From a virus (taxonomy: Duplodnaviria; Heunggongvirae; Uroviricota; Caudoviricetes), in IMG/VR virus record IMGVR_UViG_2541047887_000002: DNA of 24,712 bases, one strand, 5' to 3'. The notes beneath the pieces were generated by a model. That model worked only from the letters and a program-made list of their open reading frames with translations. It did no database searches and was not told the DNA's origin. This document shows, one piece after another, positions 225 through 24,712 of this stretch (positions are counted from its first letter, which is position 1; each line of letters starts with the position of its first letter). The position numbers and the translations under genes were made by a program.

Positions 225-865
225 TTGTCGGTATACCTCTCTCGTTTGCTCAGTTGTTCAGGAATATGGTGCAACAGCTCACCGTCGCCGCAGTAAATGG
301 CGGCATGATTCGGCACCGATGAACCAAAACAGCACAGCAGCACATCGCCCGGCTGCGCCGCTGACAACGGCACCTGATACAGCCCTGTGGCCTCCAGATT
401 ATCCAGATAGAGATTCTGGCCGTTACACCACCAGTCATCCTCACGATGAAAGTCCGGCATCTCAATCCCCGCCAGATGATAAGCATCCCGGAACAGCGTG
501 TAACAGTCCGTCGCCCCGTGCTCAAAGCGCCGCCCGGTAAGATGCGGCACACAGCGGAATTTATGAATCTCACCCCGGCAGACCAGCCACCAAGGCAAAT
601 CGCTCTGCACCTGCAGCCGCCTGTCAGCCTCACTCAGCCAGGGCAGGCCACCGGGGTGGCTGTGGACCAGCGCCACAATCTCACCCTGCATCTCTGCCCG
701 CAGCCAGTCCTCCGGCGACATCCGGAAATACGCCTCCGGCTCACCGGAGATATTCACGCAGGGAAAATATCTTTCCCCTTCCGGCGTTCTCACCACGAAG
801 CCGCACGACTCCGCTGGCGCACATCGCCGGGCGTGCGCCAGAATCGCTGATTCTGTCTGTGTCAT
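122..865 (-). CDS. K: Tail tip assembly protein K (NlpC/P60 plus JAB/MPN-like), long form of 247 aa
   Basis: ORF 122..907 with the first ATG at 863-865 (MTQTESAILAHARR...). Contains the HSHPGG motif and a C-terminal Cys/His region typical of lambda gpK. Lambda's annotated 199-aa K would start at the internal MSPEDW. Confidence 0.85.
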   Translation of the reverse strand: MTQTESAILAHARRCAPAESCGFVVRTPEGERYFPCVNISGEPEAYFRMSPEDWLRAEMQGEIVALVHSHPGGLPWLSEADRRLQVQSDLPWWLVCRGEIHKFRCVPHLTGRRFEHGATDCYTLFRDAYHLAGIEMPDFHREDDWWCNGQNLYLDNLEATGLYQVPLSAAQPGDVLLCCFGSSVPNHAAIYCGDGELLHHIPEQLSKRERYTDKWQRRTHSLWRHRAWHASAFTGIYNDLAAASTFV

Positions 866-869
866 GGGA

Positions 870-1568
870 TTACTGCGAAAGTTTGTTAATGGAAAGGAAG
901 CCGCCAAAGTTGCCGACGTTATTGCGAAACTTACAGCCGCTCAGGCATTTGCTGCATTTATCCTTCGTGATATCGGACGTCGGCTGGTCATATTCATCCG
1001 CAACCGCCGGACCGTGATAACCGCACTCATCACCGCGATAGGTCCAGGTGCAGGTGTTGGCCAGCATGGTACGTCCCGGAAAAACAGCACCATCCGTTTC
1101 CGTCGGCGTGGACAGTACAAAAGAGGCACTCACCGCGCTCAGTTCGCTGCACTGCTCGATGCGCCAGCGGCTGATCACCTCCTGCTCTGGATCGGCTTCG
1201 CTGTTTCCGTTGACGAAGTTCACCACATCCAGAAAACGGGCGTAAACCTTACGCCTGACCACCGTTCCGCCGACCAGACTCTGCAGGTCTTCCGCCATCC
1301 CGGTGACCATGCCGTGCAGATTAGAGACTTTCAGCGTTGGCCTTGCACTGGCTCCTTTGCCGTTCATCTCAAATCCACTTCCCTGAATGGGATAGGCCTG
1401 ATACTGCCGCCCCTGCCAGGTGACTGGTTCACCTTTTTCGTTCTGCTCATTACAGAAGAAATAACGATCTCCGCCGACCTCTGTCAGATCAATTTCCCAG
1501 AGCACGACCAGCGCGGATTGCTCCGTTTTAGTGCACTCATTGAGTGTTTCCTGCTGTATATCCTGCAT
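870..1568 (-). CDS. L: Minor tail protein L (lambda gpL-like)
   Basis: 232-aa ORF MQDIQQETLNEC...FGGFLSINKLSQ, with the Cys-rich C-terminus characteristic of gpL. Its start overlaps the M stop (TGATG). Confidence 0.9.
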   Translation of the reverse strand: MQDIQQETLNECTKTEQSALVVLWEIDLTEVGGDRYFFCNEQNEKGEPVTWQGRQYQAYPIQGSGFEMNGKGASARPTLKVSNLHGMVTGMAEDLQSLVGGTVVRRKVYARFLDVVNFVNGNSEADPEQEVISRWRIEQCSELSAVSASFVLSTPTETDGAVFPGRTMLANTCTWTYRGDECGYHGPAVADEYDQPTSDITKDKCSKCLSGCKFRNNVGNFGGFLSINKLSQ

Positions 1569-16632: not shown

Positions 16633-16704
16633 TGAAGTGGTTTACTGAATTTGGCCACCTGAACAGAGGTGATATGCTCACCTCAGAACAACACAGGTGC
16701 CATA

Positions 16705-18093
<1,389 letters not shown>

Positions 18094-18258: not shown

Positions 18259-18264
18259 GCATGT

Positions 18265-18294
18265 AAAAAGGCCCCAACACATGTGCGTGGGGCC
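18265..18294 (-). terminator. Minus-strand intrinsic terminator-like hairpin
   Basis: Minus strand reads GGCCCCACGCACAUGUGUUGGGGCC followed by UUUUU. Confidence 0.45.
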
Positions 18295-18494
18295 TGAGAG
18301 TATACATGGTTTCAGTCAACTGCATGGTGCCGGGTGCCTCCCGGTGAATTCAGTACCAGCACCTGAATCCGCGATTATCCCATATACCTACTCGCTGATT
18401 GCCCCTCCGCACAGGGGGATTCACCATGCCAGTTTCTTTTAACAAACTCCCCGCAAAACAGACAACTGTCAACCGTCTGAATTGTGAGACATTT

Positions 18495-18520
18495 AAAAAA
18501 AAGGCCCGCAAAAGCGAGCC
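18495..18520 (-). terminator. Intrinsic terminator after the tRNA cluster
   Basis: Minus strand reads GGCUCGC-UUUU-GCGGGCC followed by eight U, about 15 nt after the 3' end of the last tRNA. Confidence 0.55.
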
Positions 18521-18534
18521 GGGAAAAATAAGTC

Positions 18535-18611
18535 TGGCGCGTTGTACTGGATTCGAACCAGTGACCGATTGCTTAGAAGGCAATTGCTCTGTCCGGTTGA
18601 GCTAACAACGC
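18535..18611 (-). tRNA. tRNA-Arg (anticodon UCU)
   Basis: Hand-folded cloverleaf: acceptor GCGUUGU/ACAACGC, D-stem GCUC/GAGC, anticodon stem AUUGC/GCAAU with loop CUUCUAA, T-loop UUCGAAU, encoded 3' CCA. Confidence 0.75.
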
Positions 18612-18624
18612 AGGGTACAGATAA

Positions 18625-18701
18625 TGGACCGCCATCGAGGACTCGAACCCCGCGCAACCAGCTTCGAAGGCTGGTGCTCTATCCTGATGAGCTAATGGCG
18701 G
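18625..18701 (-). tRNA. tRNA-Arg (anticodon UCG)
   Basis: Hand-folded cloverleaf: acceptor CCGCCAU/AUGGCGG, D-stem GCUC/GAGC, anticodon stem CCAGC/GCUGG with loop CUUCGAA, T-loop UUCGAGU, encoded CCA. The 5' end is uncertain by 1 nt. Confidence 0.65.
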
Positions 18702-18708
18702 TATGTGA

Positions 18709-18784
18709 TGGTGGCCCTTGCTGGATTTGAACCAGCGACCTGGCGATTATGAGTCGCTCGCTCTCACCTCTGAGCTAAAGGGCC
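18709..18784 (-). tRNA. tRNA with anticodon CAU, most likely tRNA-Ile2 (ileX/ileZ-like); elongator Met not excluded
   Basis: Sequence GGCCCUUUAGCUCAG...GACUCAUAAUCGC...GGUUCAAAUCCAGCAAGGGCCACCA closely resembles E. coli ileX as I recall it. Anticodon loop CUCAUAA. Confidence 0.7.
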
Positions 18785-21103: not shown

Positions 21104-21376
21104 TTACCTCCAGATGCGTTGCTGGAATGTGCGGGACGGACGCGGTGGGCGTTCAGAGTAAGGAAGCCTGACGGAGATTATCCAGTGACGATAATCGAGG
21201 CTGAGGGCTTTCTTAATCTCGTATCCGCGTCTGCGGTAGTTATGAATTAGCCATTCGGCCTGTTCTTCAGTACATGGTGGGTGTTGGTACCAGTCGGTTT
21301 TAAATGCGTGTGAACGCCGCTCATGCCGGATGGCAAGGTCGGTATCAGAATTGTGAAATTTGGTTTTGTGCGCCAT
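21104..21376 (-). CDS. Hypothetical protein (90 aa)
   Basis: ORF with ATG at 21374-21376, tightly packed upstream of the DUF968 gene. No motif recognised. Confidence 0.5.
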   Translation of the reverse strand: MAHKTKFHNSDTDLAIRHERRSHAFKTDWYQHPPCTEEQAEWLIHNYRRRGYEIKKALSLDYRHWIISVRLPYSERPPRPSRTFQQRIWR

Positions 21377-21448
21377 CTGTTTTCTCTGCTGGCGCAGCAG
21401 GTGTCAGGTGTTCAGGCTGACGTGCGAATTGTAAACCAGAATGCCAGG

Positions 21449-21475
21449 AAAAAACAAAACCCGCCGAAGCGGGTT
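21449..21475 (-). terminator. Intrinsic terminator downstream of hok
   Basis: Minus strand reads AACCCGC-UUCG-GCGGGUU followed by UUGUUUUUU. Confidence 0.6.
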
Positions 21476-21543
21476 AAGTGCGGGTGCGTTGAGGATGCCT
21501 GACACATCAGAGGCGGCGAGGGATTTCTCCCTCGCCAAGTCTC

Positions 21544-21699
21544 TTACTCCTCAGGTTCGTAGACTGTGAAGACAGCGACCTCCGTCTGGCCGGTTCGGAT
21601 TCGTACCTCGCAGAGGTCTTTCCTCGTTACCAGTGCCGTCACTATGACGGTTAAACAGATGACGATCAGGGCGATTAACATCGCCTTTTGCTGCTTCAT
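21544..21699 (-). CDS. hok: Hok-family type I toxin (HokD/RelF-like, 51 aa)
   Basis: MKQQKAMLIALIVICLTVIVTALVTRKDLCEVRIRTGQTEVAVFTVYEPEE is near-identical to E. coli HokD as I recall it. AAGGAG Shine-Dalgarno upstream. Confidence 0.85.
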   Translation of the reverse strand: MKQQKAMLIALIVICLTVIVTALVTRKDLCEVRIRTGQTEVAVFTVYEPEE

Positions 21700-21756
21700 A
21701 GCCTGCTTCTCCTTGCCTTTCGGCACGTAAGAGGCTAACCTAGATTTGCCGTTCAT
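21544..21756 (-). CDS. mok: Mok-like overlapping reading frame (translational coupler for hok)
   Basis: In-frame upstream extension of 70 aa from ATG 21754-21756, as in hok/mok/sok loci. Confidence 0.4.
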   Translation of the reverse strand: MNGKSRLASYVPKGKEKQAMKQQKAMLIALIVICLTVIVTALVTRKDLCEVRIRTGQTEVAVFTVYEPEE

Positions 21757-21952
21757 AGATTGAGCCTCAGATTAATGTTAAGCGTCTTGCAGGACGCGTA
21801 ATGTTAACTGGGGCTTTTCTCTATCTGCCTTTGGTGTTCATGCCTGAGGCAGATAGCCTCAAGCACCCGCAGCAATTCTACTTAAGTTAGATAAGCTTTT
21901 CTATGGTATTCTCTCAGCGTCCCGTAAATACAGTCTCGGCTCATCATTTTTA

Positions 21953-22210
21953 TCACAGGTGCGAGGAAAATATATAGCGCCCTCCATCAAGCATAACGAA
22001 ATACATTTTCCATTCATCGCCATTCCTCAATTTAATACGAAGACTTTCCCCGCAAGTGTATTTATTAAACAACTGTTCCGATGTGCTAGTAAGAGGTATT
22101 TTTACCGTTATTACAACTACTGCCCCACCATTTAACTCTCGAAGTTCAGCATCCGCATCCACAAAAGATGAATAAATGTTATGATCTGGGTAATCAACAA
22201 TTAACTGCAT
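21953..22210 (-). CDS. Hypothetical protein (85 aa) in an AT-rich island
   Basis: ATG at 22208-22210 with an AAGGAG Shine-Dalgarno 5 nt upstream. AT-rich flanks by eye. No motif recognised. Confidence 0.55.
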   Translation of the reverse strand: MQLIVDYPDHNIYSSFVDADAELRELNGGAVVVITVKIPLTSTSEQLFNKYTCGESLRIKLRNGDEWKMYFVMLDGGRYIFSSHL

Positions 22211-22865: not shown

Positions 22866-23038
22866 TCATCGCCCCACTCATCACAATATGCTTCGACCGG
22901 AGTTTTTCCTGCTTCGTAGTCATAACGCCATGCTTCAGCATCAGCGGCACTTCCACCGCGTAACTCTGCATAATCCATTAACAGTTCATGCCATTCTTCA
23001 AAACTGGCGTTATATTTAGTTGAACCAAAATCAGCCAT
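22862..23038 (-). CDS. Hypothetical small acidic protein (58 aa)
   Basis: Hand-translated MADFGSTKYNASFEEWHELLMDYAELRGGSAADAEAWRYDYEAGKTPVEAYCDEWGDE. Start overlaps the upstream stop (ATGGCTGA); stop overlaps the downstream start. Confidence 0.5.
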   Translation of the reverse strand: MADFGSTKYNASFEEWHELLMDYAELRGGSAADAEAWRYDYEAGKTPVEAYCDEWGDE

Positions 23039-23213
23039 TTTGTTCTTCCTCTTCGTCTTTTATTTCGTGGTATGAGTAATTGCAGTAGTTAAAGAAAATA
23101 TCTTTAGCTTCATCCTGTATTTCATCTGGTGTTGCATCATCATCCACTTCGAATTCATCCTCGAAATCTCCACCGGCTATTCCCGTTTCAATAATTATTT
23201 TGAATTTTCGCAT
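23031..23213 (-). CDS. Hypothetical small, very acidic protein (60 aa)
   Basis: MRKFKIIIETGIAGGDFEDEFEVDDDATPDEIQDEAKDIFFNYCNYSYHEIKDEEEEQNG, about 40 percent Asp/Glu. A hairpin at 23222-23240 lies just upstream. Confidence 0.55.
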   Translation of the reverse strand: MRKFKIIIETGIAGGDFEDEFEVDDDATPDEIQDEAKDIFFNYCNYSYHEIKDEEEEQNG

Positions 23214-24397: not shown

Positions 24398-24690
24398 TCC
24401 ATCACCTCCTGAAAGTTTCCCCGATAGAACGCCAGCACACGCTGCATAACTTCGCTCCTCCTGCTCTCACGACAAATTATGTTCTGGTGCCTGTCGTAGC
24501 GGCGCATTTCGCCGTCTGGTAACGACCAGATAAGGTCCGGATCAACCACTGCAGGTTTCTTCACCTTTGCCCTTGAGAGTTTTTTGCGAGCATTTTGCCA
24601 GTCCTTACGCGCCTGTTCAGACGGGAATAACCCGTAACCAGAGTCGTATACATCGCCACTGGCAACCAGCTCTCTGGCGAGAACACTCAT
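24394..24690 (-). CDS. Hypothetical nin-region protein (98 aa)
   Basis: ORF with ATG at 24688-24690, 22 nt from the window end. Confidence 0.5.
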   Translation of the reverse strand: MSVLARELVASGDVYDSGYGLFPSEQARKDWQNARKKLSRAKVKKPAVVDPDLIWSLPDGEMRRYDRHQNIICRESRRSEVMQRVLAFYRGNFQEVME

Positions 24691-24712
24691 CAGATATCTT
24701 GTCGCACCTGTC

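Follow-up and report, generated by a model that had tools for sequence, protein, structure and literature searches.

The minus strand of the 24,712-nucleotide stretch of viral DNA analysed here (the window) almost certainly carries, at 21449-21903, a hok/mok/sok type I toxin-antitoxin module that is complete, appears functional and belongs to the hokD/hokW subgroup; the surrounding DNA is the nin region of a lambdoid prophage of E. coli. This is an already known kind of element, annotated in phages and in thousands of genomes. The Rfam family RF01794 matches 21868-21694 (-) over the full model (1-157) with 111.7 bits against a gathering score of 59 (E=5.6e-25), and the match is therefore far beyond chance. 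No frameshift, stop codon or IS was found within 21449-21903. The analysis demonstrates the elements of the module, their conservation and the alternative predicted folds of the mRNA; their positions are collected in Table 1.

In terms of coding content, the 70-aa product of the longer frame matches the whole of the Pfam family PF01848 (HOK_GEF, positions 1-42 of 42, E=6.4e-22, cut-off 22 bits) and PHROG 251, “MokW-like host killing” (E=7.9e-32). Hok itself is made up of the last 51 codons of this frame and starts with MKQQKAML. It is identical to HokD of K-12 at 50 of 51 positions, with V46 here and A46 in HokD, and to HokW of phage 933W at 47 of 51, while Mok and the MokW annotated in 933W share 89% identity. 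The Hok of plasmid R1 is clearly related to that of the window and far more divergent than the members of the hokD/hokW group are among themselves; HokW and R1 Hok share 44% identity (PMC8621323). Taken together with RF01794, these matches bear out the initial annotation, which had read the locus as a hok/mok type I toxin with a Hok nearly identical to HokD, an overlapping mok frame and a terminator downstream of hok. This terminator is the only intrinsic one that the scan found in the region.

Table 1. Features of the hok/mok/sok module and its upstream neighbour, in window coordinates (mRNA positions are those of the hok mRNA).
Feature	Coordinates	Strand	Basis or remark
Upstream neighbour ORF, 85/87 aa	21953-22216	-	stretch of 34-40% GC
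hok promoter, TAGAAA-17-TAGAAT	21875-21903	-	consensus scan; predicted start 21868
Full-length hok mRNA, ~417 nt	21452-21868	-	promoter and terminator positions
tac, mRNA nt 1-12, GGGUGCUUGAGG	21857-21868	-	pairs with fbi (full-length) or ucb (3'-trimmed)
ucb (anti-SD), AAGCCCC, mRNA nt 53-59	21810-21816	-	pairs with mok SD or tac
Predicted Sok RNA, ~71-75 nt	21748-21822	+	projected from 933W sokW misc_RNA
mok Shine-Dalgarno (SD) region, GAGGCU, mRNA nt 101-106	21763-21768	-	8 nt upstream of mok ATG
mok, 70 codons	21544-21756	-	ORF list; overlaps hok, common stop codon
Hypervariable patch, Sok nt 1-6 and loop of the hok-mRNA target hairpin	21742-21753		13-locus comparison
sok promoter, TTGCCT (21713-21718), 17 nt, TAACCT (21736-21741)	21713-21741	+	positional homology with 933W and R1-type
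dcb, AGCCUC, mRNA nt 133-138	21731-21736	-	pairs with mok SD in 3'-trimmed fold
hok CDS, 51 aa, Hok/Gef membrane toxin	21544-21699	-	Pfam PF01848, 77.3 bits
fbi, CCUCAACGCACCC, mRNA nt 375-387	21482-21494	-	pairs with tac in full-length MFE
hok intrinsic terminator, 7-bp GC-rich stem (21475-21458), GNRA-like loop, U tract (T run to ~21449)	21449-21475	-	scan

E. coli M1/5 has, integrated beside a tRNA-Ser gene, a prophage with 99.95-99.99% identity to the window. Along the minus strand, the module is preceded by nin genes (DUF977, DUF4406, Ead/Ea22 and others), a 171-aa ORF and the 85-aa AT-rich ORF, and it is followed by a 90-aa ORF, DUF968, RusA, Q, three tRNAs, STnc100 and the lysis and morphogenesis genes. 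This gene order agrees with the lambdoid nin-region placement proposed at the outset, and the unrelated AT-rich ORF described as the upstream neighbour is indeed there. Searches of Pfam, PHROG and PADLOC with this 85-aa ORF gave no match, and a homologue search returned 15 matches, of which the named ones are all E. coli hypothetical proteins. The conserved hok/sok module spans approximately 21885-21450, with flanking DNA that differs between hosts, and no evidence was found that would make the 85-aa ORF part of it, the conserved boundary being at about 21885.

The start of the RF01794 leader model falls at 21868, exactly on the predicted start of hok transcription. Among the 13 hokD/W-type loci sampled, the -10 hexamer of the hok promoter and the start site are conserved and the -35 region is variable. 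The 417-nt mRNA has a predicted minimum free energy of -177.9 kcal/mol (z = -9.5 against shuffled sequences). In the full-length fold, tac and fbi are paired in a duplex of 12 bp with one bulge (-21.5 kcal/mol), and ucb is paired with the mok SD through its GCCCC (nt 55-59). When fbi and the terminator are removed, tac pairs with ucb at all three end-points folded, and the mok SD pairs with dcb at two of the three. Closed full-length and open truncated conformers have been described for R1 (PMC9841398), and the predicted folds of the window mRNA reproduce this switch in silico. Alignment to hok/sok loci, a check suggested by the initial annotation, placed the sok promoter by comparison with 933W and R1-type sequence and showed the leader to be conserved; the fold-back elements follow from the predicted folds and the tac/fbi comparison.

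This structure is kept under substitution. The complementarity of tac and fbi is also present in 933W, in pE94-3, in an R1-type plasmid and in pENT-812c, with compensatory changes that give GGGUGC/GCACCC in the hokD/W-type sequences, the window included, and GGCGC/GCGCC in R1 and its type. Across the 13 hokD/W-type loci used as the sample for structure conservation, the trimmed-leader structure has 87.8% pairing (slid controls, 31-54%), and 7 of its pairs show changes in both partners, where shuffles give 1.7. The helices of the tac stem are 97-99% paired with 3 covarying pairs, and the pairs between the mok SD and dcb are kept in 12-13 of the 13 loci.

As for the antisense RNA, a simple sigma-70 consensus scan found the hok promoter and did not find that of sok, because the -10 hexamer of the latter, TAACCT, matches the consensus at only 3 of 6 positions. 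Since the scan did not flag it, the strength of the sok promoter is uncertain. We therefore relied on homology to 933W and to an R1-type sequence, rather than on the promoter scan, to locate sok. The segment 21694-21742, which takes in the sok promoter together with the stretch past its -35 hexamer, is identical in the window and 933W, and plasmid-borne hokD-type relatives have TTGACC and TAATCT at the same sites. The R1-type alignment shows TTGCGC-17-TATCCT, which we take to be the R1 sok promoter, at the same position and with the same spacing as the hexamers of the window. In Sp5/933W, mutation of the sokW -10 hexamer unmasked HokW toxicity, and sokW in trans gave rescue (PMC8621323). The sok -10 hexamer is abutted on the opposite strand by dcb; in R1 a Sok-promoter mutation likewise falls in dcb (PMC9841398).

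The 71-nt sokW misc_RNA of 933W (2568-2638 of locus L001) projects to 21748-21818 (+). The predicted Sok has a 9-nt free single-stranded 5' tail, a long hairpin and a CUUUUCUCU tail, and its 75-nt form folds at -31.5 kcal/mol (z = -5.3). It is complementary to nt 47-121 of the hok mRNA, a stretch that spans the mok SD (nt 101-104) and AUG (nt 113-115). An earlier expectation of a plus-strand Sok around 21.70-21.80 kb was thus right about the strand and close in position, if slightly too far to the left. A minus-strand Sok, which the Rfam “sok” match might suggest, was rejected: RF01794 spans the hok mRNA from +1 to the hok AUG and is modelled in the hok-sense orientation, so a minus-strand match is the hok leader and not the antisense RNA.

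The hokD locus of K-12 has to be considered next. In the Qin prophage, hokD (relF) has the same hok SD, CDS, fbi and terminator as the window, with 97% identity over 265 nt. The two loci are also syntenic, both being followed by DUF968 (ydfU) and Q-like genes. Synteny is kept downstream, where the window and K-12 share 81.6% identity in the 90-aa ORF and the DUF968/ydfU-like gene, with the difference that in K-12 rem lies between hokD and the homologue of the 90-aa ORF, which is not the case in the window. The alignment of K-12 hokD covers solely 21450-21713, a segment that begins 14 nt before the hok ATG and includes the terminator. Beyond this point the 3' end of relE stands in place of the hok promoter, tac, ucb, the mok start, the sok -10 hexamer and the sok RNA, and the common segment includes a single base of the sok -35 hexamer, the first. 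It follows that the K-12 locus is the rearranged and truncated one and that of the window is intact. The relBE genes are not a functional partner of hok.

To place the two forms in the species, we surveyed 5426 complete E. coli genomes with a 601-nt query that includes the whole leader. Any match to the query was found in 4739 genomes, and 2301 have a copy that covers at least 80% of it, with the whole leader, compared with 1173 that have the relE-hokD junction. The initial annotation had stated that hokD lies directly downstream of relBE in K-12, which is correct, the 3' end of relE abutting the truncated hokD; it had also treated the missing relBE partner as unusual, and this did not hold, given the truncation in K-12 and the full-length locus in 2301 genomes. 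Its remark that no RelE or RelB motif is seen agrees with the Pfam scan, which gave no RelE/RelB match in the scanned ORFs upstream of hok to 24690 (a set that excludes the 60-aa ORF at 23031-23213). The window thus lacks the relB-relE-hokD (relBEF) arrangement of K-12 and has the full leader.

One could read the window hok as HokD/RelF detached from its relBE operon, an unusual “orphan” with possibly new regulation. The near identity of the two Hok proteins would fit, as would the K-12-like 3' UTR and terminator and a site upstream of the ydfU-like DUF968 gene that is syntenic with Qin. We consider this reading extremely improbable, since the change runs the opposite way: it is K-12 that is without promoter, tac, ucb, mok start and sok, while the window has the complete ancestral architecture common to 933W, plasmid-borne hokD-type copies and R1. 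Full-length copies are found in more genomes than the relE-hokD junction, and a nin arrangement without relBE is also annotated in “Escherichia phage Rac” (MN652886) and mEp460. The relBE-hokD locus of K-12 is therefore unsuitable as the reference architecture, because the window shows the intact form of the hokD locus. The M1/5 prophage does carry a RelE/ParE and RelB pair beside its repressor; the pair lies beyond the window, at a distance of 6.6 kb upstream of hok. As a counterpart of K-12 relBE this pair was rejected; it is unrelated to the K-12 arrangement, because its toxin has no BLASTP similarity to K-12 RelE.

Both Rac MN652886 and mEp460 have mok/hok between the replication/nin genes and Q, as in the window. 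The order in Rac is HP5-mok-hok-rem...Q, where HP5 is the same small AT-rich ORF that lies directly upstream in the window, and the two sequences are 94% identical over query positions 1-545. The Sok-tail alleles of Rac and mEp460 differ from that of the window, and downstream of hok they have rem, where the window has the 90-aa ORF (PHROG 1212) and DUF968.

The hokW-mokW-sokW locus of 933W/Sp5 (AF125520; Takada et al. 2021, PMC8621323), whose annotation in 933W dates from 1999, aligns to the window without gaps at 93.2% nucleotide identity over 414 nt. The 70-codon mok, the 51-codon hok and the tac and fbi sequences are common to both. The Sok hairpins differ at one loop base (21791), and both have an extra inner GCGUC stem. 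The window copy lies in the nin region, whereas that of 933W is at the far right end of the phage genome. The K-12-type terminator of the window is absent at the equivalent position in 933W, and the C-terminus of Hok reads TVYEPEE in the window and VDYESEK in HokW.

A more distant likeness is seen with the hok/sok (parB) locus of R1, carried by a conjugative plasmid rather than a prophage, which has the same gene organisation and regulatory elements in the same order. Compared to R1, the window leader is without the 15-nt insertion in the loop of the tac hairpin and has an extra 16-nt inner hairpin in the Sok-target stem. The sequence TACGAA at the C-terminal Tyr codon is invariant between the two. 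TadA A-to-I editing (Tyr to Cys) has been reported for hokB and hokD (bioRxiv 10.1101/2025.08.07.668861), and full toxicity of the window Hok might require such editing of Tyr47 to Cys.

We infer the expression, processing, toxicity and biological role of the window copy, and the mechanism given here is drawn from homology with plasmid R1 hok/sok and Sp5 hokW-sokW. A weak constitutive promoter would produce a stable 417-nt hok mRNA, kept silent in translation by the tac-fbi pairing and by ucb, which would cover the mok ribosome-binding site. Slow trimming of the 3' end would remove fbi, after which tac would pair with ucb and the mok site with dcb; in R1 the trimmed conformer is the translatable and Sok-binding form (PMC9841398). 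Translation of Hok is expected to be coupled to that of mok. The unstable Sok, made from the opposite strand, would pair across the mok start and block translation of mok, and hence of hok, and the pairing of the two RNAs would lead to cleavage by RNase III. Once Sok synthesis stops, Hok would be made and inserted into the inner membrane, with depolarisation or lysis as the probable outcome.

In the copies of the nin region, hok is co-oriented with the early rightward operon, and read-through from the induced pR promoter would run against the convergent sok promoter. Such read-through could shut sok off by transcriptional interference and, if true, would explain the RecA-dependent loss of Sok reported for hokW-sokW.

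[quoted passage not shown] In Sp5, sokW RNA is lost after mitomycin C treatment, and the appearance of HokW is RecA-dependent and precedes endolysin by about 1 h. Deletion of hokW-sokW leads to growth arrest about 40 min later and halves phage release, with normal growth unaffected (PMC8621323). Since direct data on a close relative come from Sp5 alone, we rank a lysis-helper role first: most likely, Hok of the window copy would be made on induction and would speed up lysis and phage release. The locus tested is the one at the far right end and not in nin, so this role may not transfer to the window copy.

Prophage addiction and the exclusion of other phages are possible alternative roles. A superinfecting phage that stops host transcription, or loss of the prophage, would let Sok decay, and Hok would then kill the cell. 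Post-segregational killing is the classical plasmid function, and hok genes are approximately four-fold enriched in prophages (bioRxiv 10.1101/2025.08.07.668861). Furthermore, in the account cited within PMC8621323, R1 hok/sok carried by a high-copy plasmid lowered the plating of T4 by 42% and made its plaques about 85% smaller. On the contrary, hok is not enriched near defence systems, and the same preprint reports single-copy chromosomal hok loci without post-segregational killing (bioRxiv 10.1101/2025.08.07.668861). PADLOC gave no match (E<=1e-3) for Mok/Hok or for 7 neighbouring ORFs, and what the deletion altered in Sp5 was lysis timing and phage yield, not normal growth. That abortive infection or addiction, rather than help in lysis, is the main role appears to us possible but doubtful.

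A silent locus is a further alternative, that is, an evolutionary relic, intact in sequence, that contributes nothing to the prophage. The hok loci of K-12 have been described as inactive (PMC1635323), and in published work summarised elsewhere native chromosomal hokA, hokB and hokC gave no post-segregational killing or rifampicin activation (bioRxiv 10.1101/2025.08.07.668861). Related copies are decaying as well, with IS421 interrupting the 3' UTR in two loci (L005 and L007), in addition to the truncated hokD of K-12. The window copy, however, is uninterrupted and has all regulatory elements with their alternative predicted folds; across lineages its leader keeps at least 95% conservation and shows compensatory changes, and the near-identical hokW-sokW is active (PMC8621323). 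A relic is thus very improbable, and a lysis helper is still the reading that we favour.

The value of the locus as a discovery is small, hok/sok of lambdoid prophages being catalogued (a 2025-26 survey lists 3852 prophage copies) and the function of hokW-sokW having been tested in 2021. What the exact coordinates of Sok, tac, ucb, dcb and fbi offer is that a lysis-timer role of the nin copies becomes cleanly testable, in comparison with Sp5 hokW-sokW.

Lastly, the conservation of the leader is broken at one place. Over the 13 loci, the two 10-nt bins of 21741-21760 differ from the window sequence with a mean mismatch of 0.29-0.33, a value that is mostly 0-0.05 and nowhere above 0.12 in the remaining leader. 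The patch lies just after the mok AUG and shows at least 9 alleles among the 13 loci. Because it encodes nt 1-6 of Sok together with the target loop, it plausibly determines specificity and so limits cross-talk between copies that reside in the same genome. In the comparison with 933W, 8 of the 28 differences fall in 21743-21757; as these substitutions cluster at Sok nt 1-6 and the target loop, the Sok of the window and SokW of 933W may not cross-protect.

We tentatively suggest, as a possible but rather improbable idea, that diversifying selection on this patch may have produced a “private” Sok, combined in the nin copies with silencing of sok by pR read-through. The places that match the hokD/W-type number 2 per E. 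coli genome in the median and up to 11, with roughly 11,000 E. coli copies in total. If a private Sok holds true, co-resident copies of this type would be mutually orthogonal addiction or lysis-timer modules.

Sequence variation across the hok leader is concentrated in one short patch. This patch takes in the beginning of the Sok RNA together with the loop of the target hairpin in the hok mRNA, and at least nine alleles of it were found among the 13 sampled hokD/W-type loci. The remaining leader, on the contrary, is nearly invariant in the same loci. The allele of the window, AACGGCAAATC, is also present in strains YZMc17-1 and 07_3722.

Within the coding region, the motif at the Tyr47 codon corresponds to the sequence found in the tRNA-Arg(ACG) anticodon loop. 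In the alignment, TACGAA is invariant between the hok genes of the window, phage 933W, K-12 (hokD) and plasmid R1. Recoding of Tyr to Cys through A-to-I editing by TadA has been reported in hokB, hokC, hokD and hokE (bioRxiv 10.1101/2025.08.07.668861). As far as the sequence goes, the motif and its invariance are consistent with such recoding.

At the 3' end, a short ORF annotated in RefSeq crosses the hok terminator and the region of the fold-back inhibitory element (fbi) in antisense. Given this course and the lack of any Pfam match for its 59-aa product, the annotated gene is probably spurious. In two related hokD-type loci, one on the chromosome of a chicken E. coli (L005) and one on an IncHI1B plasmid (L007), IS421 sits directly past the first 3' hairpin of hok, and the fbi is removed. 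These interrupted loci resemble hok loci on the K-12 chromosome that are associated with IS elements.

Features in and around the hok locus and in related loci
Feature	Location	Strand	Remarks
IS3-family insertion sequence, 1250 bp	window 16633-17882	+ (ORFs)	HTH_Tnp_1 and rve ORFs
STnc100 sRNA (140 bits) and three tRNA genes	window 18259-18784	-	between Q and holin gene
59-aa ORF	window 21323-21502	+	RefSeq hypothetical protein WP_001112736.1
CUACGAA	window 21557-21563	-	across hok Tyr47 codon
Hypervariable patch	window 21742-21753		Sok nt 1-6 and loop of hok mRNA target hairpin
85-aa ORF	window 21953-22210	-	directly upstream of hok promoter
IS421	L005 about 660-964; L007 about 660-960		hok 3' UTR, hokD-type loci
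RelE/ParE-family toxin and RelB antitoxin	L003 13192-13673		E. coli M1/5 sister prophage, outside window

The 85-aa ORF lies in a patch of 34-40% GC and has no match in Pfam, PHROG or PADLOC. Just 15 homologues were found in a database of 5.8 billion proteins, the named ones all being hypothetical proteins of E. coli. Phage Rac MN652886 also carries this ORF, there named "HP5", ahead of mok/hok. The gene is a moron-like orphan.

In the M1/5 prophage, the RelE/ParE-RelB pair adjoins the repressor genes, around 6.6 kb upstream of hok, and its toxin has no similarity to K-12 RelE detectable by BLASTP. The pair lies beyond the part of the prophage covered by the window, which extends to 24712 and whose final 312 nt (24401-24712) gave no alignment with the M1/5 segment used for comparison.

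The M1/5 prophage, otherwise 99.99% identical, is without the IS3-family element. This element ends in 27-nt terminal inverted repeats, TGAAGTGG...CCACTTCA, is accompanied by a 3-bp target duplication, and is inserted two codons ahead of the stop of the P21-type holin. The insertion thus alters the holin C-terminus and splits off the genes for DUF1327 and lysozyme from that for the holin, which may impair the lysis cassette.

Between Q and the holin gene, neither the list of ORFs of at least 90 aa nor the M1/5 annotation contains a toxin gene. The three tRNA genes are Ile, Arg and Arg by the M1/5 annotation, and the interval is similar in its arrangement to the late-regulatory region of Stx phages.
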